Positions 11,829 to 47,910 of a DNA stretch of 64,000 nucleotides are shown one piece after another (the first letter of the stretch is position 1; every line of letters begins with the position of its first letter). A program made the position numbers and the translations under genes. The notes beneath the pieces are model-generated. The model was not told where the DNA came from and made no database searches. It was given only the letters and a program-made list of their open reading frames with translations. The DNA is from an uncultured Collinsella sp. (lineage in GTDB: Bacteria; Actinomycetota; Coriobacteriia; Coriobacteriales; Coriobacteriaceae): NCBI GenBank assembly GCA_900545745.1, contig URAD01000001.1, positions 12,611 through 76,610 on the forward strand, given 5' to 3'.

Positions 11829-11945
11829 ATGAGCGCACAGACTAGGAATGATAGCAGATACGAACGACAAGCGCACGCACACCTTTTACAGGCTCACGAC
11901 CTCACCACGAGAGCAAGCCAATAGAGCACGCCACCCCATCTCATA

Positions 11946-12012
11946 AGTTGCGGTGGAATAGGGACTGTTTGGGGCTCCAGTCCTCCAAAACAGTCCCTAT
12001 TCCACCGCAACT
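11946..12012. repeat. palindromic intergenic repeat element, copy 1 (AGTTGCGGTG-arm ... arm-CACCGCAACT)
   Basis: agttgcggtggaatagggactgttt ... aaacagtccctattccaccgcaact. The arms are ~25 bp and perfectly complementary. Confidence 0.8.
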
Positions 12013-12050
12013 TCGGTAGGACTCGGCAGCCTGGCGATGCTGGCCATGCG

Positions 12051-12259: not shown

Positions 12260-15091
12260 CTACTCCCCCAGCAGGGCCTTCTCGGGCGTGATCGGCAGTG
12301 AGCGAACCTGATGGCCGGTGGCGTGCGCCACGGCCGAGGCAACGGCAGCGAGCGGCGTGTTGATGACGACCTCGCCGATCGACTTGGCGCCAAACGGGCC
12401 CGTCGGCTCGTAGCTCGGCTCAAAGGCCACGCGGATGCTACCGATATCCAGTCGCGTGGGCAGCTTGTAGCTCATAAAGTTGCCGGTGCGCAGGCGGCCG
12501 CGGTCGTCGTGCTCGACAATCTCGTAGAGCGCGTGACCGATACCCTGGGCAATGCCGCCCTCGGCCTGGACGCGCGCGAGCGCCTCGTTGATCACGGTGC
12601 CGCAGTCAACGGCAGCGGCGTAATCCACCACGGTCACCTTGCCGGTGGCCTTGTCAACCTCGACCTCGGCAATGCCGGCCATAAACGGCGGAGGCGAAAC
12701 GGGCAGGCAGGCAGAGGCATGCGAGGTCAGCGCGTCGCCGCCCGCGATGTTCTTGACGCACAGGTTGGCAAAGTCGCGCAGCGTGAGGTAGCGGTTCTGC
12801 TCGCGCGCGGCACGCTCGTCGGACAGGCGCACATACTGACCATCAAAGACCACATCGGCGGCGTCCACGTCCCACATCTGGGCGGCCTTGGCGCAGATCT
12901 TCTCGCGCAGCTCGGTCGCGGCGTTCTTTGCTGCCAAGCCCGTCACGTACGTGCCCGAACTCGCGTACGAGCCGGCGTCGAACGGCGACACGTCGGTGTC
13001 CACGCCGTGCACCACAATGAGCGAGCTTTCAACGCCCAGCTCCTCGGCGGCAATCTGCGCCAGAATCGTGTCGACGCCCATGCCGTTATCGGTGGCGCCG
13101 GTACCGATGGTAATGAAGCCGTCCTCTTCCAGGCGCATATCGATGCCGGCGATGTCCACGTTAGAGATGCCCGAGCCCTGCATGGTGAGCGCGCAGCCAA
13201 GGGCACGCACGCGGTCGCCCAGGTCGACGGCTAGCGGCTTGTCGCGCCAGCCGATCATGTCCATCGCGCGCAGCAGGCAGCGGTCGAGTGCGCAGGCGTT
13301 GAGCTTCTCGTTGTAGTACTGCGGCATGATCTCGCCCTCGCGCACGATGTTCTTAAGGCGCAGGTCGGCGGGGTCCATGTGCAGCATGTCGGCGAGCTCG
13401 TTGACGGCGCTCTCCACGGCAAACTGACCCTGGGTGGCACCGTAGCCGCGATACGCGCCGCCGCGGTTGGTGTTGGTGTAGACGGCGTCCCAGCTAAAGC
13501 GGCTCGCCTTCACATGGTTGTAGATGGGCAGGCTCTTATGGCCCGAAAGGCCGATTGTCGTGGTAGCGTGCTCGCCGTACGCGCCGGCGTTAGACAGCGT
13601 GTGCAGATCGATGGCCGTGATGGTGCCGTCGTTCATGGCGCCCAGCTTGACGGTCATCTGCATCTGGTGGCGCGAGTTGCCCGCGGTGATGGTCTCCTCA
13701 CGGGTGTAGCAGCAGTAACTCGGACGGCCGGTCTGCTGGGTGACGAACGCCACGAAGATCTCGCAGCAGCCCGTCTGCTTGGAGCCAAAGCCGCCACCGA
13801 TGCGCGGCTTAATGACCTGCACCTGCGACTGCGGAATATCGAGCGACTGCGCGACCATGCGGCGCACGTGGAAGGGCACCTGCGTAGAGGTGGTCACCGA
13901 AATGCGCCCAAACGCGTCGGTCGTCGCGAAGGCTCGGAAGGTCTCCATGGGCGCGGTCTGCGTGGCCTGGCTGGTGTAGGTGCGGGTGAAGACGATGTCG
14001 CTCTGGGCAAAGGCCTCGTCCAAGTCGCCAAAGTCGCTCGTGCCGCTGCATACCAAGTTGCGCGGGACGTCGCCGCCCTGCGGAAACATAAAGGTCACGT
14101 CGCCCTCGGGGTGGACCACGATGTCGTTATCGAGTGCCTGGGTAAAGTCGAGCAGCGGCTCGAGCACCTCGTAGTCGACCTTGATGAGCTTGAGCGCCTT
14201 GTCGGCGGCCTCCTCGGTCTCGGCGGCGACGATCGCCACCTCCTCGTTTTGGTAGCGCACGAGGTTCTCGAGGATCAGGCGGTCGTAGGGACTCGGCTGC
14301 GGATAGCTCTGGCCGGCAATGGTAAAGCGGCGCTTGGGAACGTCCTCGTATGTGTAGACGCCCACGACGCCGGGTACCTTCAGTGCGCGCGACGTATCGA
14401 TGGAACGGATCTTGGCGCGGGCATAGGGGCTGCGCTTGAGCTTGACGATCAGGGCGCCGGCGGGCACCAGGTCGCCCGTGTAGACGGGACGCCCCTCGAG
14501 CAGGGCCTTCGAGTCCTTCTTGGGCTGCTTATGAGTGATCTGCTTATAGGAGACGCCGTCAGAACTGGTGTCGTTGACCGGCAGCTCGGGCATCTCAAAG
14601 CCCACCTGCACGCCGGACTCGTTGAGGAAGCGCACGATGGCGCGCAGCTGGCTCTCGTAGCCGCTGCAACGGCAGAGGTTGCCGGCGAGCTGGCGCGAGA
14701 GCTCCTCGCGCGTGGCGACGAGGCTCGGGTCCTCCTTGGCGGCGCGGGCAAGCGCCAGCACGTTCATGATGAGGCCGGGAGCGCAAAAACCGCACTGCTC
14801 GGCGCCTTCGGCAGCCATTGCGCGGGTCAGCGCCTCAGACTCGGCCTTGAGACCCTCGAGTGTGGTGATGGTATGGCCCTCAACACGGGCGGCGGGAACC
14901 GAGCAGCTCAGCACCGGGTCGCCGTCGAGCCACACCGTGCACAGACCGCAGTTGGTGGTCTCACAGGCACAGCGTACCGACGCGCAGCCCTGCTCGCGCA
15001 GCAGCGCAAAGAGCATGGTGTCGGGGGCAATCTGAACCTTGACCTTACGGCCGTTGAGCGTAAAGGAAAGATCGATGAGTTTGGCAGCCAT
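12260..15091 (-). CDS. xanthine dehydrogenase-family molybdoenzyme, fused [2Fe-2S] + molybdopterin-binding subunit (XdhD/Mop-like)
   Basis: N-terminal 2Fe-2S ferredoxin domain (CGLCTVWLDG, CRCSGY), then aldehyde oxidase/xanthine dehydrogenase a/b hammerhead and Moco-binding domains. 943 aa. Its start overlaps the FAD-subunit stop (TAATG). Confidence 0.85.
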   Translation of the reverse strand: MAAKLIDLSFTLNGRKVKVQIAPDTMLFALLREQGCASVRCACETTNCGLCTVWLDGDPVLSCSVPAARVEGHTITTLEGLKAESEALTRAMAAEGAEQCGFCAPGLIMNVLALARAAKEDPSLVATREELSRQLAGNLCRCSGYESQLRAIVRFLNESGVQVGFEMPELPVNDTSSDGVSYKQITHKQPKKDSKALLEGRPVYTGDLVPAGALIVKLKRSPYARAKIRSIDTSRALKVPGVVGVYTYEDVPKRRFTIAGQSYPQPSPYDRLILENLVRYQNEEVAIVAAETEEAADKALKLIKVDYEVLEPLLDFTQALDNDIVVHPEGDVTFMFPQGGDVPRNLVCSGTSDFGDLDEAFAQSDIVFTRTYTSQATQTAPMETFRAFATTDAFGRISVTTSTQVPFHVRRMVAQSLDIPQSQVQVIKPRIGGGFGSKQTGCCEIFVAFVTQQTGRPSYCCYTREETITAGNSRHQMQMTVKLGAMNDGTITAIDLHTLSNAGAYGEHATTTIGLSGHKSLPIYNHVKASRFSWDAVYTNTNRGGAYRGYGATQGQFAVESAVNELADMLHMDPADLRLKNIVREGEIMPQYYNEKLNACALDRCLLRAMDMIGWRDKPLAVDLGDRVRALGCALTMQGSGISNVDIAGIDMRLEEDGFITIGTGATDNGMGVDTILAQIAAEELGVESSLIVVHGVDTDVSPFDAGSYASSGTYVTGLAAKNAATELREKICAKAAQMWDVDAADVVFDGQYVRLSDERAAREQNRYLTLRDFANLCVKNIAGGDALTSHASACLPVSPPPFMAGIAEVEVDKATGKVTVVDYAAAVDCGTVINEALARVQAEGGIAQGIGHALYEIVEHDDRGRLRTGNFMSYKLPTRLDIGSIRVAFEPSYEPTGPFGAKSIGEVVINTPLAAVASAVAHATGHQVRSLPITPEKALLGE

Positions 15092-16005
15092 TAGCGCACC
15101 TCGCTAGAATCGACGCCGGGCACGCGGCGGCAGGAATACTCATCCGTGGCGAACTTAGGGATCTGCACGGTCTCGAGCTCGCGGGCAAGCGCGGCAGAAA
15201 GCTCGATGCCGGCGGCGCGGCGCACGGCCTGAATCGCCAACGGTGCCGAGATGCGGCGGCGGTAGTCAGCCGAGCCCCACAGGTTGGTGCCATAGCTCAG
15301 TGCGCGTACGGACGCGGCCAGGGCGCGAAGCTCGTCCTCGGAAGGCCGCTCGTTCACCAGGCCACACGACTCGCCCTGCAGCAAGGTCGCGCGCAGCGGG
15401 CGGGCGCCCACGGTGACATGCCAGCTGTTGTCCCACCAGGCGGCGGTGACGTTCAGCGAGGGGAAGTCCGTCGCGGCCTTGCGCACGGCCTCGTAGCTCG
15501 CACGGTAATCGTGCTTGACGACTACGACGTGCTCAATCACGTCACGCACGTAGCCCATGTCCACGAACTCCGCGAGCGGCACGCGGCCGGCGCCCGTCAG
15601 CTCAACATACGAATCGAGCGCCAAAAAGGCCGAGAGCACGTCCGAAAAACCAAAGCGGCCGTAGATGCTGCCGCCCACCGTGGCGGTATTGCGCAGCTGC
15701 ACGCCCACGATGTCGTGGATGGCGAACTCAAAGACATTGTTGACAAGCGCGTTGAGCCCGGCATGACGCTCGAGCTGGCGCAGGGTGCACATGGCACCGA
15801 TGCGAAACTCGGTCTCGGTCTCCTCGATCTGATCGAGTCCGCAGGCCGAAAGGTCAATCGCCGTCGCCACGCGACGCGAACCCAGGCGCATCCAGATGCC
15901 GCCGCCCACAATCTTGTTGTTGCGGTTCTTCTGCAAGAGCTCATAGGCTTCGGCCGCGTTTCCAACACGGACGTAGGTACCGAACTTGAGCACGTTCTCC
16001 CCCAT
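15091..16005 (-). CDS. xanthine dehydrogenase-family FAD-binding subunit (CoxM/XdhB/YgfM-like)
   Basis: FAD-binding PCMH-type domain (KFGTYVRVGNAAEAYELL...KIVGGG). It sits immediately upstream of, and is translationally coupled to, the Fe-S/Moco subunit. Confidence 0.8.
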   Translation of the reverse strand: MGENVLKFGTYVRVGNAAEAYELLQKNRNNKIVGGGIWMRLGSRRVATAIDLSACGLDQIEETETEFRIGAMCTLRQLERHAGLNALVNNVFEFAIHDIVGVQLRNTATVGGSIYGRFGFSDVLSAFLALDSYVELTGAGRVPLAEFVDMGYVRDVIEHVVVVKHDYRASYEAVRKAATDFPSLNVTAAWWDNSWHVTVGARPLRATLLQGESCGLVNERPSEDELRALAASVRALSYGTNLWGSADYRRRISAPLAIQAVRRAAGIELSAALARELETVQIPKFATDEYSCRRVPGVDSSEVR

Positions 16006-16088
16006 CTCTTCACTTGTCCAGTACTTTTAAGTGTACCAAACGAGGAGCCGCACACCGTTTTAGGACAAAATCCACCCACCCATCCATA

Positions 16089-16156
16089 ACTTGCGGTGAT
16101 ATACGGACTGATTAGCCGTTCTGGGACGCTAAACAGTCCGTATATCACCGCAAGTT
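16089..16156. repeat. palindromic intergenic repeat element, copy 2
   Basis: acttgcggtgatatacggactgatt ... aaacagtccgtatatcaccgcaagtt. The arm substitutions are mirrored in the partner arm. Confidence 0.75.
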
Positions 16157-16235
16157 ATGAGGAGTCCTCCGGGATAGAAAAGGCTCCCAGCCGGAATGGC
16201 TGGGAGCCTCATCACATGCTATGTCGAGCGAAGAT

Positions 16236-18259: not shown

Positions 18260-18892
18260 CTAGGCGAGTAACTCGGCCGCCGCAAACTCCTCGGGCGTAT
18301 TGACGTTCTCGAAGCAGAGCGTCGAGCCGGCGGCCTTAACGATCTGCGACTCATCCATATAACCAGCCTGAACGCGATTGATCAGGCAGCGAATGCGCTG
18401 GCGGTCGCAGGCGAGCAGCTCTTGGGCAACCGGCGCACACGCGTCACGGCGCCAGACGGCGCAAAGCGGCTCAATCCCCCGCTCCTCGCGCGGCACGCAC
18501 GCGTCGAGCGCCTCGACCTCAACACGATCCGCAAGAGCGCCGATGAGTTCCGGCGAGACAAACGGCATATCGCAGGCAACGATCGCCACGAGAGGCAGCC
18601 GAGCCGCAGCCAACGAGCTCGCGATGCCGCGCATGGCGCCCGCCGGCCCTTCAAGGTCCGCCACCACACGCGGCACCAGGCCGCCAAACGCGCGCTCTTC
18701 AAGGTGGGCAAGCTCGCAGGGGCGCGACGTCGTGACGACCAGTTCGCCGGCAACTGGCGCCAGCCGACCCAGCACGCGCTCGATGAGCGGCTCGCCGCAA
18801 AACGCCATGCGCGCCTTATCGCAGCCCATACGCGAGGACAACCCGCCCGCTTGAACGACGCAAGAAAGATCGGCCCGTCTTACGGTAGTCAT
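18260..18892 (-). CDS. MobA-like nucleotidyltransferase (molybdenum cofactor guanylyl/cytidylyltransferase MobA/MocA family)
   Basis: LSCVVQAGGLSSRMG.DKA...GEPLIERVL is a MobA-like NTP-transferase motif. Start at MTTVRR (18892). The 5'-extended track ORF (to 19126) reads as Arg/Cys-rich non-coding translation. Confidence 0.65.
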   Translation of the reverse strand: MTTVRRADLSCVVQAGGLSSRMGCDKARMAFCGEPLIERVLGRLAPVAGELVVTTSRPCELAHLEERAFGGLVPRVVADLEGPAGAMRGIASSLAAARLPLVAIVACDMPFVSPELIGALADRVEVEALDACVPREERGIEPLCAVWRRDACAPVAQELLACDRQRIRCLINRVQAGYMDESQIVKAAGSTLCFENVNTPEEFAAAELLA

Positions 18893-19047
18893 ACGGCAAA
18901 CCACCCCCATCGGCATGCTAAAAACCCGGTGCACGAGGCCATGCGCCATCGCCGAAAAAGAAGGCGACACGACAACCCCGCGCCAAAACAAAACAGCGCC
19001 TTTGCGGCACGCAGCAAGACCGCGAGCACAAAAGCGCTGGTAGCGTA

Positions 19048-19144
19048 TGGCGGGAACGTATGTGAATCGAACACATCCAAGACGTTTTGCACGCCTCGCA
19101 ACGGTTTTGAGGACCGCGGAGCCCACCGGAGCCCATCCGTTCCC
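19048..19144 (-). tRNA. selC: tRNA-Sec (selC), anticodon UCA
   Basis: The reverse complement is GGGAACGGATGGGCTCCGGTGGGCTCCGCGGTCCTCAAAACCGTTGCGAGGCGTGCAAAACGTCTTGGATGTGTTCGATTCACATACGTTCCCGCCA (97 nt). It has a long acceptor stem, CTCCGGTG D-arm, UCA anticodon and long variable arm, and is collinear with my recollection of E. coli selC. Confidence 0.8.
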
Positions 19145-19201
19145 AAGTGCGCCGGTATTTTACCAAACCGAAACGGCTCCATCCCAAAAAGACGAGCAAG
19201 A

Positions 19202-19267
19202 AGTTGCGGTGGAATAGTTCCTGTTTTTGCTGCCAAAGCCCCCAACTAGGAACTATTTCACCGCAAC
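19202..19267. repeat. palindromic intergenic repeat element, copy 3
   Basis: agttgcggtggaatagttcctgttt ... actaggaactatttcaccgcaac. The arm variants (gttcc/ggaac) are compensatory. Confidence 0.75.
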
Positions 19268-19293
19268 AGAGGAGACGGGGGCAGGTGACCGGC

Positions 19294-21261
19294 CTAGCGC
19301 AGGGAGCGCAGGCCGCCGGCATCCTTGTCAAGGACTGTGAAGCGTACGGCATCTAGATGCTCAAGGATGCTGATGGCGCGCTTGCGCGACACGCCCAGGG
19401 ACTCGCGTAGCACACTCGTGGTGGCAGCGCCGCCGGCGTCGGTGATGGCAGCAGCGACAAGCTCGCGCGCATGGGCCTCGGCGGTAGCGGACAGGGCAAC
19501 GTCACGTTCGACCTTCACGATGGAACGGTTGAGCGAAAGCTCGCGCAGCGCACGCGTCATGGTGTCGCGATCGAGCTGGAGTTGCTCGCCCACCTCGGGC
19601 AACGTCGGCGCATCGAGGCCGGCTTCGTCCAGCAAGGCAACGATGCGTTCGCTGGCCTCGCGCACCACGCGTGCCGCCGCGGCGGCCGAATGCGGATCGA
19701 ACACCTCGGCGCCCTCGGAGGCGCACACGCCGCGAGAGCAGCCCTCGGAAATCAGGGCTGCGGCAACTGTATCGTCAGCGGTAGGCCAAGCAGCATGGGC
19801 GACGGCGCCGGGCGTAAAGCCCGTCTCCTTGGGGGCAGCCGCGTGCATGGCAGACAGGGTCGCCGCCAGGGCATCCATCGCAGCGTCAAGCACCACGGCG
19901 TCCGCCAAGAGGTCCGTTTCACCCGCGGCAAGTTTGCGAACGGAGCCCTGCGTCACCAACCCGCGCAGCGCGGCATCGACCTGGCCGACACCAAGATCCA
20001 AAGCCTCGGCAACATCAATCACCGTAACCGGCAGCGCCTGCAGCGCAAGCCAAGCGCCCACACCGCCCGCGATATCGCCGGACTCGAGCGCCACATACAG
20101 CGCACGCTCCCCCGCCGAAAGCTCGCGCGAGCGACGGCAGCGCGAAAGCAGCACGCGCCCGCCGCCGATGAGCATGACCGGCGAATAGGACAGCACCACG
20201 GCATGGTCGCCGGCACGCAGCGGCAGCGGTTCCTCCAAGCGCACCTGCACGGTACGGGTCTCGCCCACCGCCATGGGGGCCTCGCCCTCCATGAACATGA
20301 TGCGGCCGACGACCTCGGCCGTACCGGCCATCACGTGCACGCGCGCACCCGACTCGAGCACACGCGGCTTGGCTCCCTCGCGACCCAAAAACGTAAACGC
20401 CATCATAAAGCGCAGCGTCTGGCCAAAGTGACCCTCCACGCCGAGCATCTCACCGCGATCGAGCGCAGCGACGCCATCGCCCACCAGGTTGAGCGCCACG
20501 CGCTGACCGGGCAGCGCCCGCTGCGTGTCGCCATGCACTTGGATCCCGCGTACGCGGCAGGCCGTGCGCGACGGCAGCGCGACGAGCTCATCGCCCACCG
20601 CAACCGGCGCATCGTGCAGCGTTCCCGTCACGACGGTGCCGGCGCCCTTGATCGTAAAGCAGCGGTCAATCGGCAAGCGCGGCGCGGCATCGGTGCGCTC
20701 GGCACGGTCGCGGCAGGTATCCCAGCAGGCATCCACGCACTCATCGAGCGCTGCCAGCAGCGCATCAATCCCCTCGCCCGTCTTAGACGACACAGGCACG
20801 ATCGGCGCGCCCGCAAACACGGTACCCGACAAAAAGTCGTCGACATCGAGCTCGGCAAGCTCGGTCATCTCGGCATCAGCCAAATCGCACATCGTCAGCG
20901 CGACCACCATATGCGTAACGCCCAGCAGTTCCAGCACATGCACGTGCTCGCGGGTCTGCGGCATCACGCCCTCGACGGCAGAGACCACCAACACGGCAAC
21001 ATCAATGCCCGTGGCACCCTGCACCATGGCGCGCAGGTAATGGGCATGCCCGGGCACGTCGACCAGGCCAACGATCTTGCCGCTCGGCAGCGCCAGCTCG
21101 CCAAAGCCCAGCTCCACGGTCATACCGCGACGGCGCTCAACCTCCAGACGGTCGGGATTCTTGCCGGTCAGCGCCTCGATCAGTGCGGACTTACCGTGGT
21201 CGACGTGGCCCGCCGTGCCAACGATAACGGGACACTCCACCAACGCCTGAACCTCACTCAT
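19294..21261 (-). CDS. selB: selenocysteine-specific translation elongation factor SelB
   Basis: N-terminal GTPase (GTAGHVDHGKS, DVPGH) and a long winged-helix C-terminus. It overlaps selA by 4 nt. Confidence 0.9.
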   Translation of the reverse strand: MSEVQALVECPVIVGTAGHVDHGKSALIEALTGKNPDRLEVERRRGMTVELGFGELALPSGKIVGLVDVPGHAHYLRAMVQGATGIDVAVLVVSAVEGVMPQTREHVHVLELLGVTHMVVALTMCDLADAEMTELAELDVDDFLSGTVFAGAPIVPVSSKTGEGIDALLAALDECVDACWDTCRDRAERTDAAPRLPIDRCFTIKGAGTVVTGTLHDAPVAVGDELVALPSRTACRVRGIQVHGDTQRALPGQRVALNLVGDGVAALDRGEMLGVEGHFGQTLRFMMAFTFLGREGAKPRVLESGARVHVMAGTAEVVGRIMFMEGEAPMAVGETRTVQVRLEEPLPLRAGDHAVVLSYSPVMLIGGGRVLLSRCRRSRELSAGERALYVALESGDIAGGVGAWLALQALPVTVIDVAEALDLGVGQVDAALRGLVTQGSVRKLAAGETDLLADAVVLDAAMDALAATLSAMHAAAPKETGFTPGAVAHAAWPTADDTVAAALISEGCSRGVCASEGAEVFDPHSAAAAARVVREASERIVALLDEAGLDAPTLPEVGEQLQLDRDTMTRALRELSLNRSIVKVERDVALSATAEAHARELVAAAITDAGGAATTSVLRESLGVSRKRAISILEHLDAVRFTVLDKDAGGLRSLR

Positions 21262-22715
21262 CGAGCAATCGCCTTCTTAACGCACGCGACGAGCGTCGTT
21301 GCCGCCGTCTCGATATCGCGGTCACCCACGAGCGTGCGCACGTCAAACAAAATGCGATCGTGCGAGGTTCGTGTGACGACCGGCGTGTCGAAGTCCTGGA
21401 CAAGCGAGCGCTTAAGCGCGTCGACCGTCAGGCGCTCGTCAACAAGGCGCACGGCAACGCACATCGTGGGTAGCTCCATGGTAGGCAGCGAACCGCCACC
21501 GGGTGTCGAGGACTCCTCGACAATCTCCAACTCAACGGCGCACGGGCAACCGGCCTTATCGAGCCCGGCGACCATACAATCGCGCAGCTTACGGGCACGA
21601 CGCTCCAGATGAGCCTGCGGAAGCGTGAGCATGCTGAGCACCGGCACCTCGCGATGGGCAACATCGGCACCGTCCATGTAGATGCGAAGCGTGGCCTCAA
21701 GCGCCGTGAGCGCCAACTTGCCCGGACGCAGAGCACGCATAAGCGGATGCGACCCGCAGGCCTGGACCAGATCGCGACGACCCATGATAATGCCCGCCTG
21801 TGCGGCACCGAGCAGCTTATCGCCCGAACACGACACGATATCAAGCCCCGCCGCGACCGAGGTCGGCGTGGTCTCCTCGCCGCCGCGAACCAGGATATCG
21901 TCGGGCAGCAGCGCGCCAGACCCCTGGTCCTCGTAGAACAGCAGACCATGCTTGTGGGCCAGGGCGGCAAGCTCCCGAGAGCTCACTTCCTCGTGAAAAC
22001 CCTCGATGCGATAGTTGGAAGGATGGACCTTGAGGATCATGGCCGTTTCGGGCGTGATGGCGCGCTCGTAGTCGCTCAAATGCGTGCGGTTGGTGGCCCC
22101 GACCTCAACGAGCTTGGCACCCGAGGCCTCCATAACATCGGGGATACGGAAGCTGCCGCCGATCTCGACAAGCTCGCCGCGGCTGACGATAACCTCCTTG
22201 CCCGCAGCGTGAGTCGCCAGTACCAGCAGCACCGCGGCGGCATTGTTGTTGACCACGAGCGCGTCCTCGGCACCGGTGAGAGAGCGAATCAGCTGGGCAG
22301 CGTGCTCCTTGCGCGACCCACGCGAGCAGGTGTCCACGCTGTACTCGAGCGTGCTGTACCCGCGCGCGACCTCGGCCACGGCCTTGGCGGCCGACTCCGC
22401 GAGCGGGGCGCGACCCAAGTTGGTATGGATGACCACGCCCGTAGCGTTGACGGCGGGACGCAGGCTCGGCAGCGCGGAGCGGTGAGCACGCCACTCGATG
22501 GCCGAAGCCAGGTCGCGCTTAGAGCGCGGGGCGGCACCGGCGCGAATGGCGGCGCGCTCCTCGTCGAGCTCGGCCGTGACGGCGGCATGCACCACCGCGT
22601 CGCAGGTCTCCCCCGCCGCCTTCACCACCGGCCACTCGGCAAGCAGCTCGTTGACGGAAGGAATAGCGCGCAGGCGGGCGCGTACCTCATCAGACATGTT
22701 CTGGCTATCGCTCAT
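21258..22715 (-). CDS. selA: L-seryl-tRNA(Sec) selenium transferase SelA
   Basis: PLP-lysine region SGDKLLGAAQAGIIMGRRDLV. 485 aa. Sits upstream of selB. Confidence 0.9.
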   Translation of the reverse strand: MSDSQNMSDEVRARLRAIPSVNELLAEWPVVKAAGETCDAVVHAAVTAELDEERAAIRAGAAPRSKRDLASAIEWRAHRSALPSLRPAVNATGVVIHTNLGRAPLAESAAKAVAEVARGYSTLEYSVDTCSRGSRKEHAAQLIRSLTGAEDALVVNNNAAAVLLVLATHAAGKEVIVSRGELVEIGGSFRIPDVMEASGAKLVEVGATNRTHLSDYERAITPETAMILKVHPSNYRIEGFHEEVSSRELAALAHKHGLLFYEDQGSGALLPDDILVRGGEETTPTSVAAGLDIVSCSGDKLLGAAQAGIIMGRRDLVQACGSHPLMRALRPGKLALTALEATLRIYMDGADVAHREVPVLSMLTLPQAHLERRARKLRDCMVAGLDKAGCPCAVELEIVEESSTPGGGSLPTMELPTMCVAVRLVDERLTVDALKRSLVQDFDTPVVTRTSHDRILFDVRTLVGDRDIETAATTLVACVKKAIAR

Positions 22716-22767: not shown

Positions 22768-24885
22768 TTACTCGTCATTATCCTCGCGCGCGACAATCTT
22801 TTCCACGCGAACGGCGTTTTCCTGGGTGAGCGCGGCGCCCGTCAACGGGTCCCAGCGCAGCGGCGTGTGGTCGAGCGGGCCAACGCCCAAGGCCTGCCGG
22901 CCACCAACCTCAGCACCGAATGCGCGTCCGCCGGGAGCGGCCGAGGTGAAGATGCACGCCGGATGCAGATAGGGCGTCGTCTCCACGCGCACGCGGTCGC
23001 GGCCCATGTCGCTCACAAGCTCGACGATCTCCCCGTCGGCGATGCCCATGCGCGCAGCAGCATCGGCATTCATCTGCACGGCATCCAGGTCCGATCCAGC
23101 CTCGGCGGCACCCTGGGCCGCAAGCCTGCGCGAGGTGTGCGACTCAAAGGGACGGTTACCGCTAATGAGGCGAAACATCCCCGGGCCAGGCTCCACCATG
23201 GGAGCGATCCAGTTGGGTACACGACCCATGCCGGCTCGTTCCCATACGTCGCTTGCCAGCGCAATCTTGCCGCCGGCAAGCGGAATCACCGGCTCACCCG
23301 TGCGCGTCGGCAGCGTTATGCCCGTATCGGCCCAGCCGCACTCCATGAGCTCGTCCAGATTGATCCCAAAAGGCGCCACCTGGGCAGCCGCCAGATCGTC
23401 AGACGTAAACTGGAAGTACTCGCCCACGCCACACGCCTGCGCCAGACCGGCAAAAATCTCCCGACCGGGACGTGTGTCGTCATGCTGCACAGGCAGCACG
23501 GCGTTGCGGTAGAACACGCGCGAATCGTTGGCGCCCACGACCATTCCCACGCCGCGGTCGGCCTCCAGATACGTCACGTCGGGCAGCACGAAGTCGGAAG
23601 CGCGCGCCGTCTCGGACCAGCGAATATCAATCGTCACGAGCAAGTCGAGCTGCTGCAAGATGCCCAACCAAGCCTGCGCATTGCCATAGCCCGCACCGGG
23701 GTTACTGGCATAGACGATGAGCCCACGCAAATCGCCGGCAAGAATCGACTGGCCGATGGTCGTGCACAGACCGCGCTCGGGGTCGACGAGCGGATAACGT
23801 TCGGACCCCAACTTGGGCTCACGTGGCATCGACGGCGTCGCGAAACGCGCAGGGTCCAAATCGCCCAACGCAAGCGGTGTGGGCGGGTTGAGGGCACCGC
23901 CCGCATGTCCGATGCAGCCCAGCAGCACATCGACCAAACAGATAGCGCGCGCGGTCTGGGTGCTATTGGCATACGCGATGCCGATGCCACCATGAAAGCC
24001 TGCATCCACCACAGCGGCAGGCGCGGCGGCAGCTAGCTCGCGCGCCGTGGCGACAATCTCTGCGGCCGGCACGTCGCACATCGACTCGGCCCACTCGGGC
24101 GTCCAAGCACTGGCCGCCTGCGCCAGCTCGTCAAACCCCGTGGTATAGCGGGCAACAAACTCGTGATCGTACAGGTCCTCGGCAATCAACACGTGGACAA
24201 TACCCAACAGCAGCGCCAAGTCGCAGCCCGGGCGCACGCGGAGCCAGCGATCGGCAATAGCGGCCGAACCGCTGCGCCGGGGGTCGACCACGATAATCTT
24301 AGCCCCACGTCGACGGGCATCGTTGAGCGCATCAACGGCCCCCATCGTCGACGAATCGACAATGGAACGCCCCAAATACATGATGCAATCGGTATGCGCC
24401 AGGTCGGAGGCGGGACTATAGCCCAAGCTATGCTCCCAACCGGTGAGACGGCTTACCTCGCAGGCACCATCGGCGCCGTACACGTTGGGCGAACCCAGCG
24501 CGTGCATAAGACGATAGGCCCAGTAGCGGTCGAACGAGGGCACGCCGAGTGTCATGCCCAGCGCACGAGGCCCGCACTCGTCAACAATCCCCAAAAGACG
24601 CTCGGCAATCTGAGCAAACGCCTCGTCCCAGGTAATCGCATCGAACCCCGAGCCATCAGCTCGTCGGCGCATGGGGTGCAAAATCCGGTCGCGCTCGTCA
24701 AACGGCATTGCCAGGCGATGCCGTCCGCGGGCGCACAGGGCACGCGCCGCGCACGGATGCCCCGGCACCGGCAACTCGGCCACCACGCGACCGTCCTCAA
24801 CGCGTGCCGCAAAGGCGCAATCGGCATAACATCCCCCGCATGTGGTCACCACGGCGCGACCGTCACGCTTCACAGCAGATGCCAT
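22768..24885 (-). CDS. molybdopterin (bis-MGD) oxidoreductase, Fdh/Nap-like, Cys-type, no Tat signal
   Basis: N-terminal C-x2-C-x3-C Fe-S motif (TCGGCYADC), MopB-family domains and a candidate Mo-ligand Cys (GADGACEVS). No in-frame TGA. Start at MASAVKRDG (24885). Confidence 0.7.
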   Translation of the reverse strand: MASAVKRDGRAVVTTCGGCYADCAFAARVEDGRVVAELPVPGHPCAARALCARGRHRLAMPFDERDRILHPMRRRADGSGFDAITWDEAFAQIAERLLGIVDECGPRALGMTLGVPSFDRYWAYRLMHALGSPNVYGADGACEVSRLTGWEHSLGYSPASDLAHTDCIMYLGRSIVDSSTMGAVDALNDARRRGAKIIVVDPRRSGSAAIADRWLRVRPGCDLALLLGIVHVLIAEDLYDHEFVARYTTGFDELAQAASAWTPEWAESMCDVPAAEIVATARELAAAAPAAVVDAGFHGGIGIAYANSTQTARAICLVDVLLGCIGHAGGALNPPTPLALGDLDPARFATPSMPREPKLGSERYPLVDPERGLCTTIGQSILAGDLRGLIVYASNPGAGYGNAQAWLGILQQLDLLVTIDIRWSETARASDFVLPDVTYLEADRGVGMVVGANDSRVFYRNAVLPVQHDDTRPGREIFAGLAQACGVGEYFQFTSDDLAAAQVAPFGINLDELMECGWADTGITLPTRTGEPVIPLAGGKIALASDVWERAGMGRVPNWIAPMVEPGPGMFRLISGNRPFESHTSRRLAAQGAAEAGSDLDAVQMNADAAARMGIADGEIVELVSDMGRDRVRVETTPYLHPACIFTSAAPGGRAFGAEVGGRQALGVGPLDHTPLRWDPLTGAALTQENAVRVEKIVAREDNDE

Positions 24886-25007
24886 CTCGATTACCCCTTT
24901 CATCAGCCAAACACAACAGACCAAAAGCCCGGCAACGAGCCCCAGACCCAAAAAGCCTCCCGCACGGCAACGCCCCGCGGGAGGCCCAACGTCAAACAGA
25001 CGGTACT

Positions 25008-25847
25008 TTACGCCTCGGACTTCTTGGCGTAGATAAACCAGTAGCCGAGCGCGATCAGAACAGCACCGCCCACAATGTTGCCCAGCGTGGCGGCGGACAG
25101 ATTAAACGCAATACCCGCGACGTTGAGCGAATCGGCCCCGGCAACCTTGGCACCATAGCCGCATGCATGCATCACGGCACCCATGGGCAAAAAGTACATG
25201 TTGGCAACGCAGTGCTCAAAACCGCAGGCCACAAAGGCGGCGATGGGCAGCAAAATGCCCACAACCTTATCGACCACGGTCTTGCCCGCAGTACCGATCC
25301 ACACGGCCAGGCACACAAAGATGTTGCACAGGATGCCGCGGAAGAAGATCGTCACCCAGTCGATCGTCACCTTGCCGGCGGCGACGCTCACCATGGAATT
25401 GGCGACCGCCTCGCCGTTGAGCTTGTAAATGCCGGCCATGTACACCAAAAAGACGATGAACAGAGCACCGACAAAGTTACCGACCCATACGACGACCCAA
25501 GCCTTGAGCATCTGGACCAGGGTGATCTTTTTGCTCTTGAGCGCGCAGACCATAAGTGAGTTGCCGGTGAACAACTCGGCGCCACACACCAGTACCAGCA
25601 CCAGGCCCAGGCAAAAGCACAGGCCGCCCACGACGCGCTGGGCGCCCCAGCCCAGCGTGCTATCGCTCAAAAACACGGTAAAGAACAGACCGCCGAAGGC
25701 GATAAACGCGCCGGCGAACATTGCCAACAGAAAGGCCTTTGCGACCGGCAGTTTGGCCTTGGTCACGCCGGCGGCCTCGGTCTTGGCCTCGATCGCGGCG
25801 GGCGTCAGGCAATCGGGAGCGGGATATTCTGCCTTGGAATCTGCCAT
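25008..25847 (-). CDS. focA: formate/nitrite transporter family channel (FocA-like)
   Basis: FNT family: LAMFAGAFIAFGGLFF plus multiple TM segments. It lies between the FHL operon and the bis-MGD enzyme. Confidence 0.75.
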   Translation of the reverse strand: MADSKAEYPAPDCLTPAAIEAKTEAAGVTKAKLPVAKAFLLAMFAGAFIAFGGLFFTVFLSDSTLGWGAQRVVGGLCFCLGLVLVLVCGAELFTGNSLMVCALKSKKITLVQMLKAWVVVWVGNFVGALFIVFLVYMAGIYKLNGEAVANSMVSVAAGKVTIDWVTIFFRGILCNIFVCLAVWIGTAGKTVVDKVVGILLPIAAFVACGFEHCVANMYFLPMGAVMHACGYGAKVAGADSLNVAGIAFNLSAATLGNIVGGAVLIALGYWFIYAKKSEA

Positions 25848-25886
25848 GTCAATCACTTCTTTCCTAATCAGCAGGGGCAAGCGCTG

Positions 25887-28474: not shown

Positions 28475-30247
28475 TTAGAGCGCCTCCTCATCGAGCGGAG
28501 CGGCCATGGTGCCCTCGCCCGCAAGCGGCGACTTGTCGCGCCAGACGTTCTCGAACTGCTCCTTGTCGAGCACGTGGTCGCGCTTGGCGGCGACATCGGT
28601 CACCGTCACGCGGTCGGTGCAGGAGTAGCACGGGTCGAGCGAGCCGACGATCAGCGCCGCGTCGCCCACGGTGTTGCCGCGGAACATGTAGCGCAGGACC
28701 GGCCAGTTGCTGTACGTGGCGGCCTTGGCGCGCCAGCGGTAGCACTTCTGGTTGTTGCCGAGCATGGCCCAGTGCACGTCCTCGCCGCGCGGCGCCTCGG
28801 TGGCGCCGATAGCGTACTTGTGCGGGGTGTACTCCCAATCCGTGGTGAGGATGGGGCCCGACGGGCAGTTCTCGAGCATGGTCTCGATCATGTCGATCGA
28901 ATCGTAGACCTCCTGGATGCGAACGGCGGTACGGCCGAAGGCATCGCAGGTGTCGGCCGTAGCGGCATGCATCTTTTGGACGTCCGGATCGGCGTAGCCG
29001 TCGAAGGGGTGGTCAAAGCGCACGTCGCGGGCATAGCCCGAGCCACGCATGAGCGGGCCGACCGGCGAGAAGTCGCGTGCGATCTTGCGGTCCAGAATGC
29101 CGATACCGCTCGTACGCTCAATGAAGTTGGGCGTGGAGAGCAAGACGTCGACGAGCTCCTGAACCTCGGAGCGCAGCTGGTGGATGGTCGTGAGCGTGGA
29201 GAGCTTCTGCTCGGCCAAAATGTCGCGACGCACGCCGCCGATCACGTTAAGGCCGTAGGTCTTGCGGTGACCGGAGAGCTTCTCGGCCAGGTCCATGGAC
29301 TTCTCGCGGACGCGGAAGAACTGTTGGAAGCCGGAGTCGAAGCCCGTGTAGTGCGACGCCAGGCCAATGTTGAGCAGATGCGAGTGCAGGCGCTCGACCT
29401 CGAGCATGATAGCGCGGATGTACTGGGCGCGCGGCGGGACATGAATGCCCTGGGCGCGCTCGACGGCCTCGGCGTAGGCCACCGAGTGGGCGCAGCCGCA
29501 GATGCCGCAGATGCGGTCGGCGAGGAACGTCACGGCGTCATAGTTCAGGCGCGTCTCGGCGACCTTCTCCATGCCGCGGTGCACGTAGAACAGACGGTAA
29601 TCGGCGTCGACGATCGTCTCGCCCTCGACGAACAGGCGGAAGTGGCCGGGCTCGTCGGAGGTGATGTGCAGCGGTCCCATGGGGACGAGCGTCGTCTCCT
29701 TGCCCTTGGTATCGGCCAAGAACTCGTAGTTTTCCATGTCGCTCGCGGGAGCGGGACGGAAGCGGTAGTCCATGGAGTCCTTGCGCAGCGGATACAGGCC
29801 GCTGGGCCAATCGTCGGGCAGCACCAGGCGGCGACGATCGGGCAGGCCCTCGGGAATCAGGCCGAACATGTCGCGCAGCTCGCGCTCGCCCCACACGCAG
29901 GCGGGGACGAACGGCGTCACGGACGGGAACGTCATCTTGGCGGGATCGACCTCGGTGCGCACGGTCACCCAGCCGGGGTCCTCCCCCTCCATGGAGATGA
30001 CGTAGTACACGGCGTAGCGACCGCACAGACTGCGCTCGTCGTTGCCGATAATCACGGGAATCCAGCCGTAGCGCTCGTAATACAGGTAATGGACGGCCTC
30101 GGGCAGCTTGTCCTGCTTGACGGTAATCGTCAGCTGGTCCTCGCACTGCCACTCGACCTTCTCGATGCAGCCCGGAACGGCGCGGCGCAGGGCCTCGACA
30201 TGGCTCTCGCAGCGACGGGCATACACCTTGTTCTCAGTTTCAATCAT
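28475..30247 (-). CDS. hycE: [NiFe] hydrogenase large subunit, group 4 (HycE/HyfG; NuoC-NuoD fusion)
   Basis: N-terminal RICGICG... and C-terminal DPCYSCTDR Ni-Fe ligand motifs. A C-terminal tail follows for HycI processing. Confidence 0.9.
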   Translation of the reverse strand: MIETENKVYARRCESHVEALRRAVPGCIEKVEWQCEDQLTITVKQDKLPEAVHYLYYERYGWIPVIIGNDERSLCGRYAVYYVISMEGEDPGWVTVRTEVDPAKMTFPSVTPFVPACVWGERELRDMFGLIPEGLPDRRRLVLPDDWPSGLYPLRKDSMDYRFRPAPASDMENYEFLADTKGKETTLVPMGPLHITSDEPGHFRLFVEGETIVDADYRLFYVHRGMEKVAETRLNYDAVTFLADRICGICGCAHSVAYAEAVERAQGIHVPPRAQYIRAIMLEVERLHSHLLNIGLASHYTGFDSGFQQFFRVREKSMDLAEKLSGHRKTYGLNVIGGVRRDILAEQKLSTLTTIHQLRSEVQELVDVLLSTPNFIERTSGIGILDRKIARDFSPVGPLMRGSGYARDVRFDHPFDGYADPDVQKMHAATADTCDAFGRTAVRIQEVYDSIDMIETMLENCPSGPILTTDWEYTPHKYAIGATEAPRGEDVHWAMLGNNQKCYRWRAKAATYSNWPVLRYMFRGNTVGDAALIVGSLDPCYSCTDRVTVTDVAAKRDHVLDKEQFENVWRDKSPLAGEGTMAAPLDEEAL

Positions 30248-30250
30248 TCG

Positions 30251-31810: not shown

Positions 31811-31813
31811 GGA

Positions 31814-32467: not shown

Positions 32468-32480
32468 GTCGTTCTACCTC

Positions 32481-33938: not shown

Positions 33939-33953
33939 TGTTTCTCCCTTCTC

Positions 33954-34880: not shown

Positions 34881-34892
34881 GCTCTCCCCTCC

Positions 34893-37599: not shown

Positions 37600-39873
37600 C
37601 TACACGATTTGGTTCACGTGCGTCTCGTCGTCGAACTTGGCGGCACCGGGCTCAACGTCCTGGGGAGCGGCGGCGTCCACCAGAGCCTGCTTGAGCTCGG
37701 TGTACTGACGCTCGACCTCGCCCTCGGCCCAGACCTGGTCGGCAATGGCGTCGACCTGGCAGGCGGAAAACTTGTCCTCGGGCGTGTGCGAGACCGGGTC
37801 GACCTTGTGCATGGTCAGCTCGTTGCACTTGCCGATCCACCACTGGTAGGTCATATAGACCGTGCCCTTGTTGATGCGGTCGCTCACGTCGGCGCGGCTG
37901 TATACCTGGCCGCGGCGGCTGTGAATCGAGACGATGTCGCCGTTCTTGATGCCGCGCGCCTGGGCGTCCGCGGGATTCATGCGAACAAAGCCGGGCTCGT
38001 CGGCGAGCAGCGCCAGCGTCTTGCAGTTGCCGGTCATCGAGCGGCAGCTGTAGTGGCCGACCTCGCGGACGGTGCACAGGATGAGCGGGTACTCATCGTC
38101 GGGAAGCTCGGAGGGCGCCTCCCAGTCGTGCGCCATCAGGTTGGCGCGGCCGTCCTTGGTGGTGAACTTGCCACCAGCGAACATGTCGGGCGTACCGTGG
38201 TCGTTCACATCGGTGCTCTTGACCGGCCACTGGGCGTAACCGCCCTCGGGAGCCATCTTCTCGTAGGTCGCGCCCACAAAGTTGGGGCACAGGCTAATGC
38301 ACTCGTTCCAGATCTGCTCGGTGTTGTCGTAGTGCATGGGGTAACCCATGCGCGTGGACAGGTCCGCGAAGATCTCCCAGTCGTGGCGGCACTCGCCCTT
38401 GGGCGGAACAGCCGCGTCAAAGTGCTGGAAGCTACGGTCGGATGCAGTAAAGACACCCTCGTGCTCGCCCCAAGAGGTGGCAGGCAGGATGACGTCGGCG
38501 AGCATGGTCGTCTGCGTCATAAAGATGTCCTGGCAAATGAACAGGTCCAGCTCGGAGAGCGTCTTGCGCATACCGGCCGAATCGGGCTCGGTCTGCACCG
38601 GGTCCTCGCCGTAGTTGTAGAAGCAGTGCACCTTGCCCTCGTCGACCAGGTGGCCCAGGTCGGTGAGCTTGTAGCCCTCCTCGAGCGGGAGCTTTTCCTC
38701 GGGCACGCCCCAAGCCTTGGCAAACTTGGCACGCACTGCCGGGTCGGTGACCTTCTGGTAGCCAGGGTACAGGTTGGGCAGCATGCCCATATCGCAGGAG
38801 CCCTGGACGTTGTTCTGACCGCGCACGGGCGCGAGGCCGGAATTGGGTTTGCCGATCTGGCCGGCAACGCAGGCGATGGAGGCGATGGTGTGCACCGTCT
38901 TCAGGTTCTGCTTCTGCTGGCATACGCCCATACCCCAGCCAATGATGGCAGAGGGCTTCGCCGTGGCGTACATCTCGGCAGCTTGGTGGATCAACGCGGG
39001 CTCGACACCCGTGATGTCCTGTACGGATTCGGGAGTGTAGTTTTTGATGGTCTCCCACCATTCGTCAAAGCCGTTCGTGTGCTCGGCGACGAATTCCTTG
39101 TCGTAGAGGCCATCGTTGACCAAGCAGTTGGCAAAGGCGTTGAGGAACGCAACGTTGCAACCGTTCTTGATCGGAAGGTAGAGATCGGCGATACGCGCGG
39201 TTTCGATATGGCGCGGGTCGGCGACGATGATCTTGCAACCCTTTTCTTTGGCTCGCACGATACGCCTTGCGACGATGGGGTGCGAATCGGCAGGGTTATA
39301 GCCGAAGAGGAAAATGCAGCCCGCATCCTCCATACCGGGGATGGAGCATGACATGCAACCTGAACCAACCGTGTCCATCAGACCGAGGACAGTAGGGCCG
39401 TGTCAAGTACGGGCGCAGTTGTCCACGCTGTGGGTGCCGATGCACGCACGCGTAAACTTCTGCATGACGTAGTTCGCCTCATTGCCGCCGCCTCGCGAAG
39501 AGCCGGTGGTCATGACAGCGTTAGGACCATATTCGTCAATTATGGCCTGCATCTTAGATGCGGTGAAATCCAGTGCCTCGTCCCAGCTTACGCGCTCAAG
39601 ATCCGCGCCCTTAGTGCGGCGGATCATCGGGTGCAGCACGCGAGGAGTCAAGATCTTGGTGTCGTTGATGAAGTCGTAGCCGCTCATGCCCTTAAGGCAC
39701 AGCTCGCTCTGGTTGGTGATGCCGTTGAGCGGTTCGGTACCCACGACCTGGCCGTTTTGGACCAAGAGGTTAAACTGGCAACCGGCGCCGCAATACGGGC
39801 AGATCACTTTATGCTTCTCCATGACACCCTCCTTCCTTTTTCTGCTACCGAATACTCGGTACTTATTTGACAA
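37600..39873 (-). CDS. fdhF: formate dehydrogenase H, selenocysteine-containing; in-frame TGA (Sec) at 39403-39405
   Basis: Two track ORFs (39403..39873 and 37600..39378) are collinear with E. coli FdhF across the stop: ...DNCART-[TGA]-HGPTVLGL... versus E. coli ...CCARV-U-HGPSVAGL.... The sequence right after the TGA (CACGGCCC ... GGUCUG) resembles my recollection of the E. coli fdhF bacterial SECIS. selA, selB, selC and selD are present in this window. Confidence 0.85.
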
Positions 39874-46860: not shown

Positions 46861-47910
46861 CTAGCGAACAACGTGGACGGCAGGACCGCCTGGCACCGAC
46901 TCGCACACGCGACCGACGACGGCGGCAATACGTCCTTCGGCATGCAGACGGCGCGCAAGCTCATCCACATCGGCAGCAGGTGCCGCGATAAGCAGGCCAC
47001 CAGACGTCTGCGGGTCGTACAGCGCGTCGAGCATGCCCGGCTCAAGGTCCTCGTCGGCCGTCACGCGCGGGCCAAAGAAGTCCTGGTTGCGGTAGGAGCC
47101 CGCGGGGATAATGCCCAAACGCGCCATGTCGAGCACCTGGTCAAAGAGCGGCACCGCCCCCGACGCAAGCTCAATCTGCACGCCCGAGCCCTCGGCCATC
47201 TCGCACGCATGCCCGATCAGGCCAAAGCCCGTGATGTCGGTGCAGCCGTGAAGCTCAAGTCCCTCGGCCAGACGAATCGGAGCCTCGTTGAGGGTGCGCA
47301 TCGAGTCAAACATGGCTGCGGCCTCGTCCTGCTCGATGAGCTCGCCCTTAATGGCCGTGGTGATGATGCCCGAGCCAACCGCCTTGGTCAGCAGTAACGC
47401 ATCGCCCACGCGCGCGCCGCTGTTGGCGAGCATGCGGTCGAGCGCGACAAACCCGCTCACGGACAGGCCGTACTTGGGCTCGTCGTCGTTGATGGTGTGA
47501 CCGCCCGCGATGGAGCAACCCGCCTCGACGCACTTGTCGGCGCCGCCCGCCAGAATCTGACCGGCAACCTCAACGCCCAGACAGCTCGGGATGCACAGCA
47601 AGTTCATGGCATGGCTCGGCCGCCCGCCCATGGCGTAGATGTCCGACAGCGAGTTTGCCGCGGCGATCTGGCCAAACAAAAACGGGTCGTCGACCATCGG
47701 TGGGAAGAAGTCGATGGACTGCACGAGACCCAAGTTATCGCCAACGCGAAAGACGCTCGCATCGTCGGAGGTATCGAACCCCACGAGCAAGTTGTCGTTA
47801 TGCACATTGGGTAAATCGCCCAGGACCTGGGCGAGGGCTCCAGGAGCCAACTTAGCGGCTCAACCGCTCGCGGCCGTCATAGACGTGAGCCTCATGGTGT
47901 CCTTAGCCAT
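46861..47910 (-). CDS. selD: selenide, water dikinase SelD, selenocysteine-containing; in-frame TGA at 47860-47862 (codon 17)
   Basis: The track ORF (46861..47850) lacks the catalytic N-terminus. Reading upstream through the TGA gives MAKDTMRLTSMTAASG-U-AAKLAPGALAQVL..., with a GGAAGGGAGG RBS before the ATG at 47910. The Sec is at the same position as the Cys/Sec in known SelD proteins. Confidence 0.85.

Follow-up and report, generated by a model that had tools for sequence, protein, structure and literature searches.

Computational identification of a selC (tRNA-Sec) gene directly downstream of selA-selB in a Collinsella genome

The window analysed here, a stretch of 64,000 nucleotides, comes from a Collinsella genome of the aerofaciens group and carries genes for the insertion of selenocysteine (Sec). 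The genes and signals considered below, numbered from the first letter of the window, are the following.

18260..18949, minus strand: mobA-like molybdenum cofactor guanylyltransferase gene (Pfam NTP_transf_3, E = 5.8e-29)
18986..19010, minus strand: terminator-like hairpin GTGCCGCAAAGGCGC followed by TGTTTTGTTT, from a terminator scan, 38 nt past the 3' end of the tRNA
19048..19144, minus strand: selC, tRNA-Sec, 97 nt, anticodon UCA, G73, CCA encoded
19157..19165, minus strand: extended -10-like promoter motif TGGTAAAAT, whose end lies 12 nt before the 5' end of the mature tRNA
19193..19271, no strand assigned: copy 3 of a family of 79-nt palindromic repeats, in the gap that separates the selB stop codon from selC
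19294..21261, minus strand: selB, selenocysteine-specific elongation factor, 655 aa (TIGR00475, 279.5 bits, cut-off 242)
21258..22715, minus strand: selA, L-seryl-tRNA(Sec) selenium transferase, 485 aa (TIGR00474, 520 bits, cut-off 268)
37600..39822, minus strand: fdhF-like formate dehydrogenase H gene, in-frame TGA at 39403-39405 (codon 140)
46861..47910, minus strand: selD, selenophosphate synthetase, in-frame TGA at 47860-47862 (codon 17, motif SG-U-AAK)

The original prediction, made from the letters of the window, had placed a tRNA-Sec on the minus strand at 19048-19144, and both ARAGORN and Rfam bear it out. The tRNA-finder check proposed with it returned a tRNA-SeC call with anticodon tca at exactly 19048-19144 (-), and Rfam family RF01852 (tRNA-Sec) matches 19052-19144 (-) over positions 1-91 of the 91-position model with 64.6 bits (E = 7e-11), above the gathering score of 47 bits. 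The gene had been called unannotated, which is true of a track limited to open reading frames, but any standard tRNA finder reports it. The minimum free energy fold of the single sequence is the bacterial tRNA-Sec cloverleaf (-38.6 kcal/mol), with the predicted UCA anticodon, long acceptor stem and long variable arm all present. The acceptor stem has eight positions and the T stem 5 bp, giving a 13-position helix in the bacterial 8+5 arrangement, while the D arm consists of a 6-bp stem and a 4-nt loop (GGGCUC/CGGU/GGGCUC). The anticodon stem of 5 bp closes a 7-nt loop, CCUCAAA, with UCA at gene positions 35-37, the variable arm forms an 8-bp stem, and the 3' end carries G73 followed by the encoded CCA.

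Comparison with relatives supports the same fold. In an alignment of 10 sequences, 96.5% of the cells fall into pairs of the cloverleaf, a value reached in none of 500 shuffles and compared with 40-52% in slid controls, and both sides have changed in 21 of the 32 tRNA pairs; the long acceptor stem thus not only folds but also covaries. The D helix is fully paired (100%) among the aligned relatives, with changes on both sides in five of its six pairs. The 9/4 register of the archaeal/eukaryotic type, drawn in the Rfam consensus line, could be dismissed, since covariation from A-U to G-C is seen at the first T-stem pair and A9 is unable to pair with C85 in the Coriobacteriaceae sequence L034.

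The E. coli selC used for comparison is a 100% identity match annotated as tRNA-Sec in 5425 of 5426 genomes. The Collinsella gene resembles it in the UCA anticodon, the eight-position acceptor with 5-bp T stem, the long variable arm, G73 and CCA, as well as in the 6-bp D stem with loop CGGU and the D-arm string CTCCGGTG, which the original prediction had correctly given as common to both. Unlike E. coli selC, which has C-G as its eighth acceptor pair, it has G·A, which is not Watson-Crick, and its anticodon loop reads CCUCAAA, placing a C at position 33, as opposed to CUUCAAA in E. coli. Position 33 is a near-universal U, that of the anticodon U-turn. Taken alone, C33 and the G·A pair could hint at a decaying gene.

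The neighboring genes lie where they had been placed, with selC directly downstream of selA-selB and between selB and the MobA/MocA-like gene. Both SelA and SelB pass their NCBIfam equivalog cut-offs, SelA with an additional Pfam match at E = 7.5e-133 and SelB with the domains GTP_EFTU, Beta-barrel_SelB and SelB-wing_3, a composition that includes the C-terminal winged-helix SECIS-binding domain. selA and selB overlap by 4 nt at the selA stop and form a translationally coupled pair. On the downstream side, the mobA-like product scores 99.9 bits against TIGR02665 (MobA), below the cut-off of 151.85, and only 33.7 bits as MocA. The start of its gene is uncertain, with in-frame ATG codons at 18949, 18916 or 18910. 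An apparent overlap of the tRNA with a 288-aa open reading frame at 18260-19126 was discarded, as the domain begins at about residue 84 and in-frame ATGs are found at 18949 and below; with its real start there, the mobA-like gene stays clear of the tRNA. Wherever the flank of a Collinsella locus extends as far as selC (30 loci), selC comes after selB, and this adjacent and co-oriented position, kept throughout these loci, is a predicted selABC operon arrangement.

The nucleotides between selB and selC are less uniform. The repeat said to separate the two genes was indeed located there, at 19193-19271, and belongs to a palindromic family (D1) of six copies of 79 nt in the window, whose arms TTGCGGTGRWATA start 50 nt apart and give 12 arm matches against 0 expected. 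Copy 3 is carried by an insertion of ~110 nt that follows the selB stop codon and precedes the selC promoter motif, with a filled site of 139-152 nt and an empty site of 39 nt across Collinsella species. The repeat is, on this comparison, a secondary insertion, found only in some Collinsella species; it sits upstream of the promoter motif and leaves both motif and tRNA untouched. Copy 3 folds into a hairpin of ~22 bp (z = -3.2), and a role as intrinsic terminator of selAB could be imagined for so strong a hairpin, but the T-run begins ~17 nt past the stem and the terminator scan called no terminator at copy 3.

Probably selC also has transcription signals of its own, namely a predicted extended -10 upstream and a hairpin with T-run downstream. 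The string TTTGGTAAAATA is invariant in 30 of 30 Collinsella loci regardless of the upstream insertion, with the motif TGnTAAAAT, and in a relative from the Bacillota (L079) the equivalent place is taken by TTGCAA-17-TATAAT. A two-hexamer scan found no canonical -35/-10 promoter for selC and no -35 element, and such a promoter was dropped in favor of the extended -10 motif, the only one conserved. We infer that TGGTAAAAT would be the promoter of selC itself, an assignment that rests on one conserved 9-mer. Downstream, every Collinsella locus has a terminator-like hairpin: GTGCCGCAAAGGCGC is conserved in loci of the aerofaciens clade, and a different hairpin, CCACCACAAAGG...TTTGTGGTGG, occupies the equivalent position in L021, L024 and L025. 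The separate promoter-like motif suggests that selC can also be transcribed independently of selA-selB.

Further along the window, the two in-frame TGA codons that had been read as Sec align as expected of such codons. That of the fdhF-like gene aligns with X140, the Sec of E. coli FDH-H (1aa6, E = 1.4e-141), and that of selD with Cys17 of E. coli SelD 3u0o (E = 1.2e-66) and, in addition, the SGCAAK motif of Aquifex SelD 2yye. A SECIS-like hairpin (~39400-39366) follows the fdhF-like TGA and has the apical loop GGUCU, which presumably places G23/U24 as in the E. coli fdhF SECIS; the best SECIS-like hairpin of selD, its loop ~36 nt from the UGA, is less clear. A scan of all frames found no third credible in-frame TGA or selenoprotein gene in the window. 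At the gene level the Sec-decoding trait is complete, with selA, selB, selC, selD and at least one selenoprotein gene with UGA and SECIS, and the full insertion toolkit that had been proposed is in place: selA, selB and selC are adjacent and selD, with its TGA aligned to Cys17, lies in the same window. With these four genes confirmed, the TGAs at 47860-47862 and 39403-39405 are therefore read as selenocysteine.

How the parts would work together can be proposed from what is known of the E. coli pathway. SerRS would charge tRNA-Sec with serine, recognizing the long variable arm and G73, SelA would convert the serine to selenocysteine with selenophosphate supplied by SelD, and SelB would bring the tRNA to UGA codons trailed by a SECIS hairpin. 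The target codons in the window would be codon 140 of the fdhF-type formate dehydrogenase and codon 17 of selD, and the formate dehydrogenase would feed a Hyf-type formate hydrogenlyase.

We are close to certain, from comparative sequence evidence, that 19048-19144 (-) is the functional selC of this Collinsella genome. It is very unlikely that the gene is decaying or non-functional, with C33 and the mismatch at the base of the acceptor impairing UGA decoding. Such a reading could draw on the distribution of U33, which is present in E. coli, in the deeper-branching Collinsella L021 and L024, in L034 and in the Bacillota L048 and L079, and which is conserved in 100% of 553 eukaryotic tRNA-Sec (PMC5330540). 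C33 is derived within Collinsella, and L021 and L024 also keep a canonical G-C eighth pair. Against decay, however, stands the lack of any difference between the selC sequences of 25 species representatives of Collinsella and those of 52 metagenome contigs, although the SelB proteins differ by 6-11%. This identity shows strong purifying selection on selC. Moreover, selA, selB and selD are intact, as are the two genes with in-frame TGAs, and 7 of the 10 aligned sequences have a non-standard eighth acceptor pair; it is non-Watson-Crick in L034, L048 and L079 as well. Nor is C33 unique to Collinsella, an idea ruled out by a metagenome scan: tRNA-Sec genes with C33 beside intact selA and selB turned up in no fewer than half a dozen unrelated lineages, among them soil bacteria of high GC content and gut bacteria of low GC content; because the scan selected for C33, it yields no C33 frequency. 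Look-alikes of tRNA-Sec are known from bacteria (allo-tRNA, selC*), and the non-canonical C33 and G·A pair do depart from the textbook form, but it is barely conceivable that this gene is one of them, charged with Cys or keeping Ser and suppressing UGA without inserting Sec, given that it has the UCA anticodon, G73, a long variable arm, a D arm of 6 bp and 4 nt and a 13-position acceptor and T helix, that within the Rfam clan the tRNA-Sec model outscores the one for tRNAs in general, and that it is the sole tRNA-Sec-type gene found in the window, directly after selA-selB.

As a functional selC, the gene can be set beside known arrangements. E. coli selC is separate from selAB, whereas here it begins 149 nt past the selB stop. 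Eubacterium acidaminophilum carries a selDABC cluster. As in selABC and selDABC clusters, selC is found immediately beside selA-selB and on the same strand, but unlike in selDABC clusters selD lies outside, at a distance of ~25 kb, where its neighbors are genes for a TusA/DsrE fusion and a class-V aminotransferase, and unlike in either type a mobile palindromic repeat separates selB from selC. Operons of the selABC type are a described arrangement (Santesmasses et al., 2017, PMC5330540). For C. aerofaciens, Table 4 of the 2007 survey lists two selenoproteins (Zhang & Gladyshev, PMC1976440), a count equal to the two TGAs of the window. A published table places selD beside a SirA-like gene and ~31.7 kb from the gene for an aldehyde oxidoreductase Mo subunit (PMC1976440, PMC2432076), and the layout of the window, with selD at 46861 and an XDH-family gene ending at 15091, agrees with that listing. 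The portions of PMC1976440 and PMC2432076 (Zhang et al., 2008) available to us do not describe the peculiarities of the tRNA sequence or the repeat insertion. For a Collinsella gut bacterium with two selenoproteins already on record, the selC call is a correct but unremarkable one; selABC clusters, like the C. aerofaciens Sec trait, were in the literature before.

The importance of the finding is mainly one of annotation and our knowledge of selenocysteine insertion is unchanged. Both selD and the fdhF-like gene should be annotated at full length, with their TGAs treated neither as stops nor as frameshifts. Specialist interest is limited to the recurrent C33 and to the palindromic insertion, present or absent upstream of the selC promoter. 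A literature search on C33/U33, incomplete in its coverage, yielded no description of bacterial C33 tRNA-Sec variants, and their novelty is unproven. One tentative and rather doubtful explanation is that SelB-dependent UGA decoding may tolerate or even exploit C33, unlike decoding by ordinary elongator tRNAs, or that this base undergoes C-to-U editing. If true, C33 would mark an overlooked structural class of bacterial tRNA-Sec.

The original prediction had placed a selenocysteine (Sec) tRNA gene, selC, at 19048-19144 on the minus strand, between selB and a MobA-like gene, and both the gene and its setting are borne out. Of the four tRNA genes that ARAGORN calls in the window, one is a tRNA-SeC with anticodon tca at exactly these coordinates. 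An independent match to RF01852 (tRNA-Sec, Rfam) covers 19052-19144 (minus strand) over the full length of the model; it scores 64.6 bits (E = 7e-11; gathering score 47) and beats the clan's general tRNA model. SelA and SelB pass their family cut-offs, and the locus comprises:

18260-19126, minus strand: ORF containing the MobA-like nucleotidyltransferase gene, downstream of the tRNA
19048-19144, minus strand: selC, tRNA-SeC
19294-21261, minus strand: selB (TIGR00475, 279.5 bits, cut-off 242)
21258-22715, minus strand: selA (TIGR00474, 520 bits, cut-off 268)
22768-24951: PhsA/Fdh-like molybdopterin oxidoreductase gene, upstream of selA
25008-25886: formate/nitrite transporter gene, upstream of selA

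SelB carries GTP_EFTU, SelB beta-barrel and SelB winged-helix domains, and its gene overlaps selA by 4 nt. The MobA-like ORF as drawn runs into selC; since its domain begins at about residue 84 and in-frame ATGs follow at 18949, 18916 and 18910, this overlap is not real.

Read along the minus strand, selC is GGGAACGG AU GGGCUC CGGU GGGCUC C GCGGU CCUCAAA ACCGU U … AUGUG UUCGAUU CACAU ACGUUCCC G CCA. From this alone RNAfold recovers a tRNA-Sec cloverleaf at -38.6 kcal/mol, with an acceptor stem of 7 bp plus an unpaired G·A at the eighth position, a D arm of 6-bp stem and 4-nt loop, a 5-bp anticodon stem, an 8-bp variable arm and a 5-bp T stem. The D arm (CTCCGGTG) is that of E. coli selC, as predicted; the sequence used for this comparison matches the E. 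coli gene at 100% identity, and 5425 of 5426 complete E. coli genomes carry that gene under the annotation tRNA-Sec. The fold is backed by an alignment of nine distinct tRNA-Sec sequences and E. coli, in which 96.5% of cells are paired in the 8+5 cloverleaf and 21 of 32 pairs are changed on both sides; none of 500 shuffles matched these pairing and covariation values, and slid controls were 40-52% paired. The 9/4 register drawn by the Rfam consensus line is ruled out because the first T-stem pair covaries from A-U to G-C.

Loci of relatives were retrieved through SelB from one-genome-per-species contigs. SelB is 89-94% identical to that of many Collinsella species, and by this sequence comparison the window comes from the Collinsella aerofaciens group. 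ARAGORN calls tRNA-SeC directly 3' of selB in all 30 Collinsella loci with long enough flanks; within 4 kb of selB it is absent in most other phyla retrieved. A tRNA identical to that of the window occurs in 25 species representatives and in at least 52 metagenome contigs. One further metagenome contig (L140, 2252-2347, minus strand) has the Collinsella tRNA-Sec minus one variable-arm base, at 96 nt, and this deletion reflects an assembly error or else a rare variant.

Two elements flank the tRNA:

19165-19157, minus strand: extended -10-like motif TGGTAAAAT, ending 12 nt before the mature tRNA 5' end
19010-18986, minus strand: GC hairpin and T-run after the tRNA, terminator-like

The sequence TTTGGTAAAATA, which contains TGGTAAAAT, is invariant upstream of selC in 30/30 Collinsella loci, whatever lies further upstream, and no recognisable -35 was found there. 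Actinobacterial promoters often rely on an extended -10 alone, and the motif fits this pattern; in a Bacillota relative (L079) the corresponding place holds a textbook TTGCAA-17-TATAAT. The 3' hairpin is kept within the clade; in deeper Collinsella branches another hairpin takes its place. We infer from these elements that selC probably has its own promoter and terminator, and co-transcription with selAB is possible.

The intergenic space between selB and selC holds the third of six copies of a 79-nt palindromic repeat, as predicted:

11937-12015: copy 1
16080-16158: copy 2
19193-19271: copy 3, between selB and selC
41643-41721: copy 4
42925-43003: copy 5
61186-61264: copy 6

All six are intergenic and three adjoin tRNA genes (Leu, Sec, Gly/Pro). 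The arm TTGCGGTGRWATA has 12 matches in the window vs 0 expected; paired arms start 50 nt apart, and outer arms extend the palindrome to about 110 nt. The repeat hairpin is of about 22 bp (z = -3.2 on folding), and the repeat has no Rfam match at the gathering threshold. Copy 3 belongs to an insertion of about 110 nt that lies between the selB stop and the selC promoter motif and leaves both tRNA and motif undisturbed. The empty site is seen in 15 Collinsella loci, with a selB-selC gap of 39 nt, and the gap in repeat-carrying loci is usually 139-152 nt; a second site, some 3 kb off, is polymorphic too, and at both sites some Collinsella species have the repeat and others lack it. The repeat thus behaves like a REP/MITE-type mobile palindrome. 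Different inserts occupy the same selB-selC site in other Collinsella species (L006:5966-6138; L014 and L023:5966-6422; L038:5966-6223), including an unrelated palindrome, GGGACGGGGATTAAAAAATCATT…AATGATTTTTTAATCCCCGTCCC, in L006, and inserts of 258-457 nt made up of the repeat plus additional sequence. The site resembles a hot spot for hairpin elements.

Two positions of the tRNA itself are unusual:

19110-19116, minus strand: anticodon loop CCUCAAA, with C at position 33 (C33) rather than the near-universal U
19137 and 19059, minus strand: eighth (innermost) acceptor pair, G·A

U33 is found in E. coli, two deeper-branching Collinsella (L021, L024), a Coriobacteriaceae relative (L034) and two Bacillota (L048, L079), which makes C33 a derived state within Collinsella. 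When metagenome contigs were scanned by pattern for tRNA-Sec of the C33 type (loci L081-L200), at least 120 matches came up; being selected for C33, they give no frequency relative to U33. ARAGORN confirmed tRNA-SeC in 116 of the 120 matches listed, among which are at least 49 distinct sequences, from at least half a dozen unrelated lineages (high-GC soil, low-GC gut contigs and several others). On these occurrences, C33 is a recurrent natural variant of tRNA-Sec. We found no description of a bacterial C33 tRNA-Sec in the literature searched; among 553 eukaryotic tRNA-Sec, U33 is 100% conserved (PMC5330540). One metagenome contig (L137) carries C33 and U33 copies, at 2873-2971 (plus strand) and 3227-3325 (minus strand), convergent and about 250 nt apart. 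The high-GC soil lineage (GC 0.67-0.76; L081, L103, L109, L144, L155, L156, L164, L167, L173, L175, L181, L183, L187) has its genes in the order selC-selA-selB, which puts the tRNA upstream of selA, and every pair in the acceptor stem of its 95-nt C33 tRNA-Sec is Watson-Crick (GGAGGCG…CGCCUCC). Of the 10 aligned sequences, 7 have a non-standard eighth acceptor pair; L021 and L024 have G-C here and E. coli has C-G, L034 has G·G, and L048 and L079 have G·A. In the tRNA-Sec of E. coli this region carries the antideterminants against EF-Tu, and a pair that is not Watson-Crick is therefore not alarming here.

The predicted Sec toolkit, with two in-frame TGA codons read as Sec, also holds:

37600-39822, minus strand: fdhF-type formate dehydrogenase gene, TGA at codon 140 (…NCART-TGA-HGPTV…)
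46861-47910, minus strand: selD, TGA at codon 17 (…AASG-TGA-AAKL…)

The fdhF-type TGA lies opposite the Sec residue of E. coli FDH-H (1aa6, E = 1.4e-141), and that of selD opposite Cys17 of E. coli SelD (3u0o, E = 1.2e-66) and the SGCAAK motif of the Aquifex enzyme. A six-frame scan of the window found no other credible in-frame TGA. The hairpin 3' of the fdhF-type TGA has the apical loop GGUCU, with G and U at 23 and 24 from the U of UGA, an arrangement presumably shared with the fdhF SECIS of E. coli; for selD the hairpin is less distinct. By analogy with the E. coli system, the tRNA would be charged by SerRS, converted by SelA with selenophosphate from SelD, and delivered by SelB to UGA codons marked by SECIS. 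Next after the fdhF-type gene come one for a 4Fe-4S ferredoxin and a set for a Hyf-type hydrogenase (28475-37533), the latter encoding three antiporter-like membrane subunits, NuoH-like and NuoK-like subunits and a fused 30 kDa/49 kDa/NiFe large subunit; 28475-39822 (minus strand) is a Hyf-type (hydrogenase-4-like) formate hydrogenlyase cluster. The stretch 44767-47910 (minus strand) holds selD and, following it, a TusA/DsrE fusion gene and a gene for a class-V aminotransferase (NifS/CsdA-like); about 32 kb from selD lies an XDH-family gene in which 2Fe-2S and molybdenum-hydroxylase parts are fused, together with a gene for an FAD subunit (12260-16005, minus strand).

That selC might be a Sec-like tRNA with another identity, or a decaying gene, is in both cases contradicted by its perfect conservation, the intact partner genes, the kept TGAs and the presence of all tRNA-Sec identity features. 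Overall, selC here is already known biology, the original observation and its interpretation both being correct. Operons of the selABC type have been described (PMC5330540), and two selenoproteins are listed for C. aerofaciens in Table 4 of PMC1976440. Table 1 of Zhang et al. (2008; PMC2432076) lists for this species selD, a SirA-like gene next to it and, about 31.7 kb off, an aldehyde-oxidoreductase gene, under a proposed third selenium-utilisation trait; the tabulated spacing matches that in the window, where the SirA-like gene corresponds to the TusA/DsrE fusion gene. The confirmed selC helps to annotate the two genes that contain a TGA.
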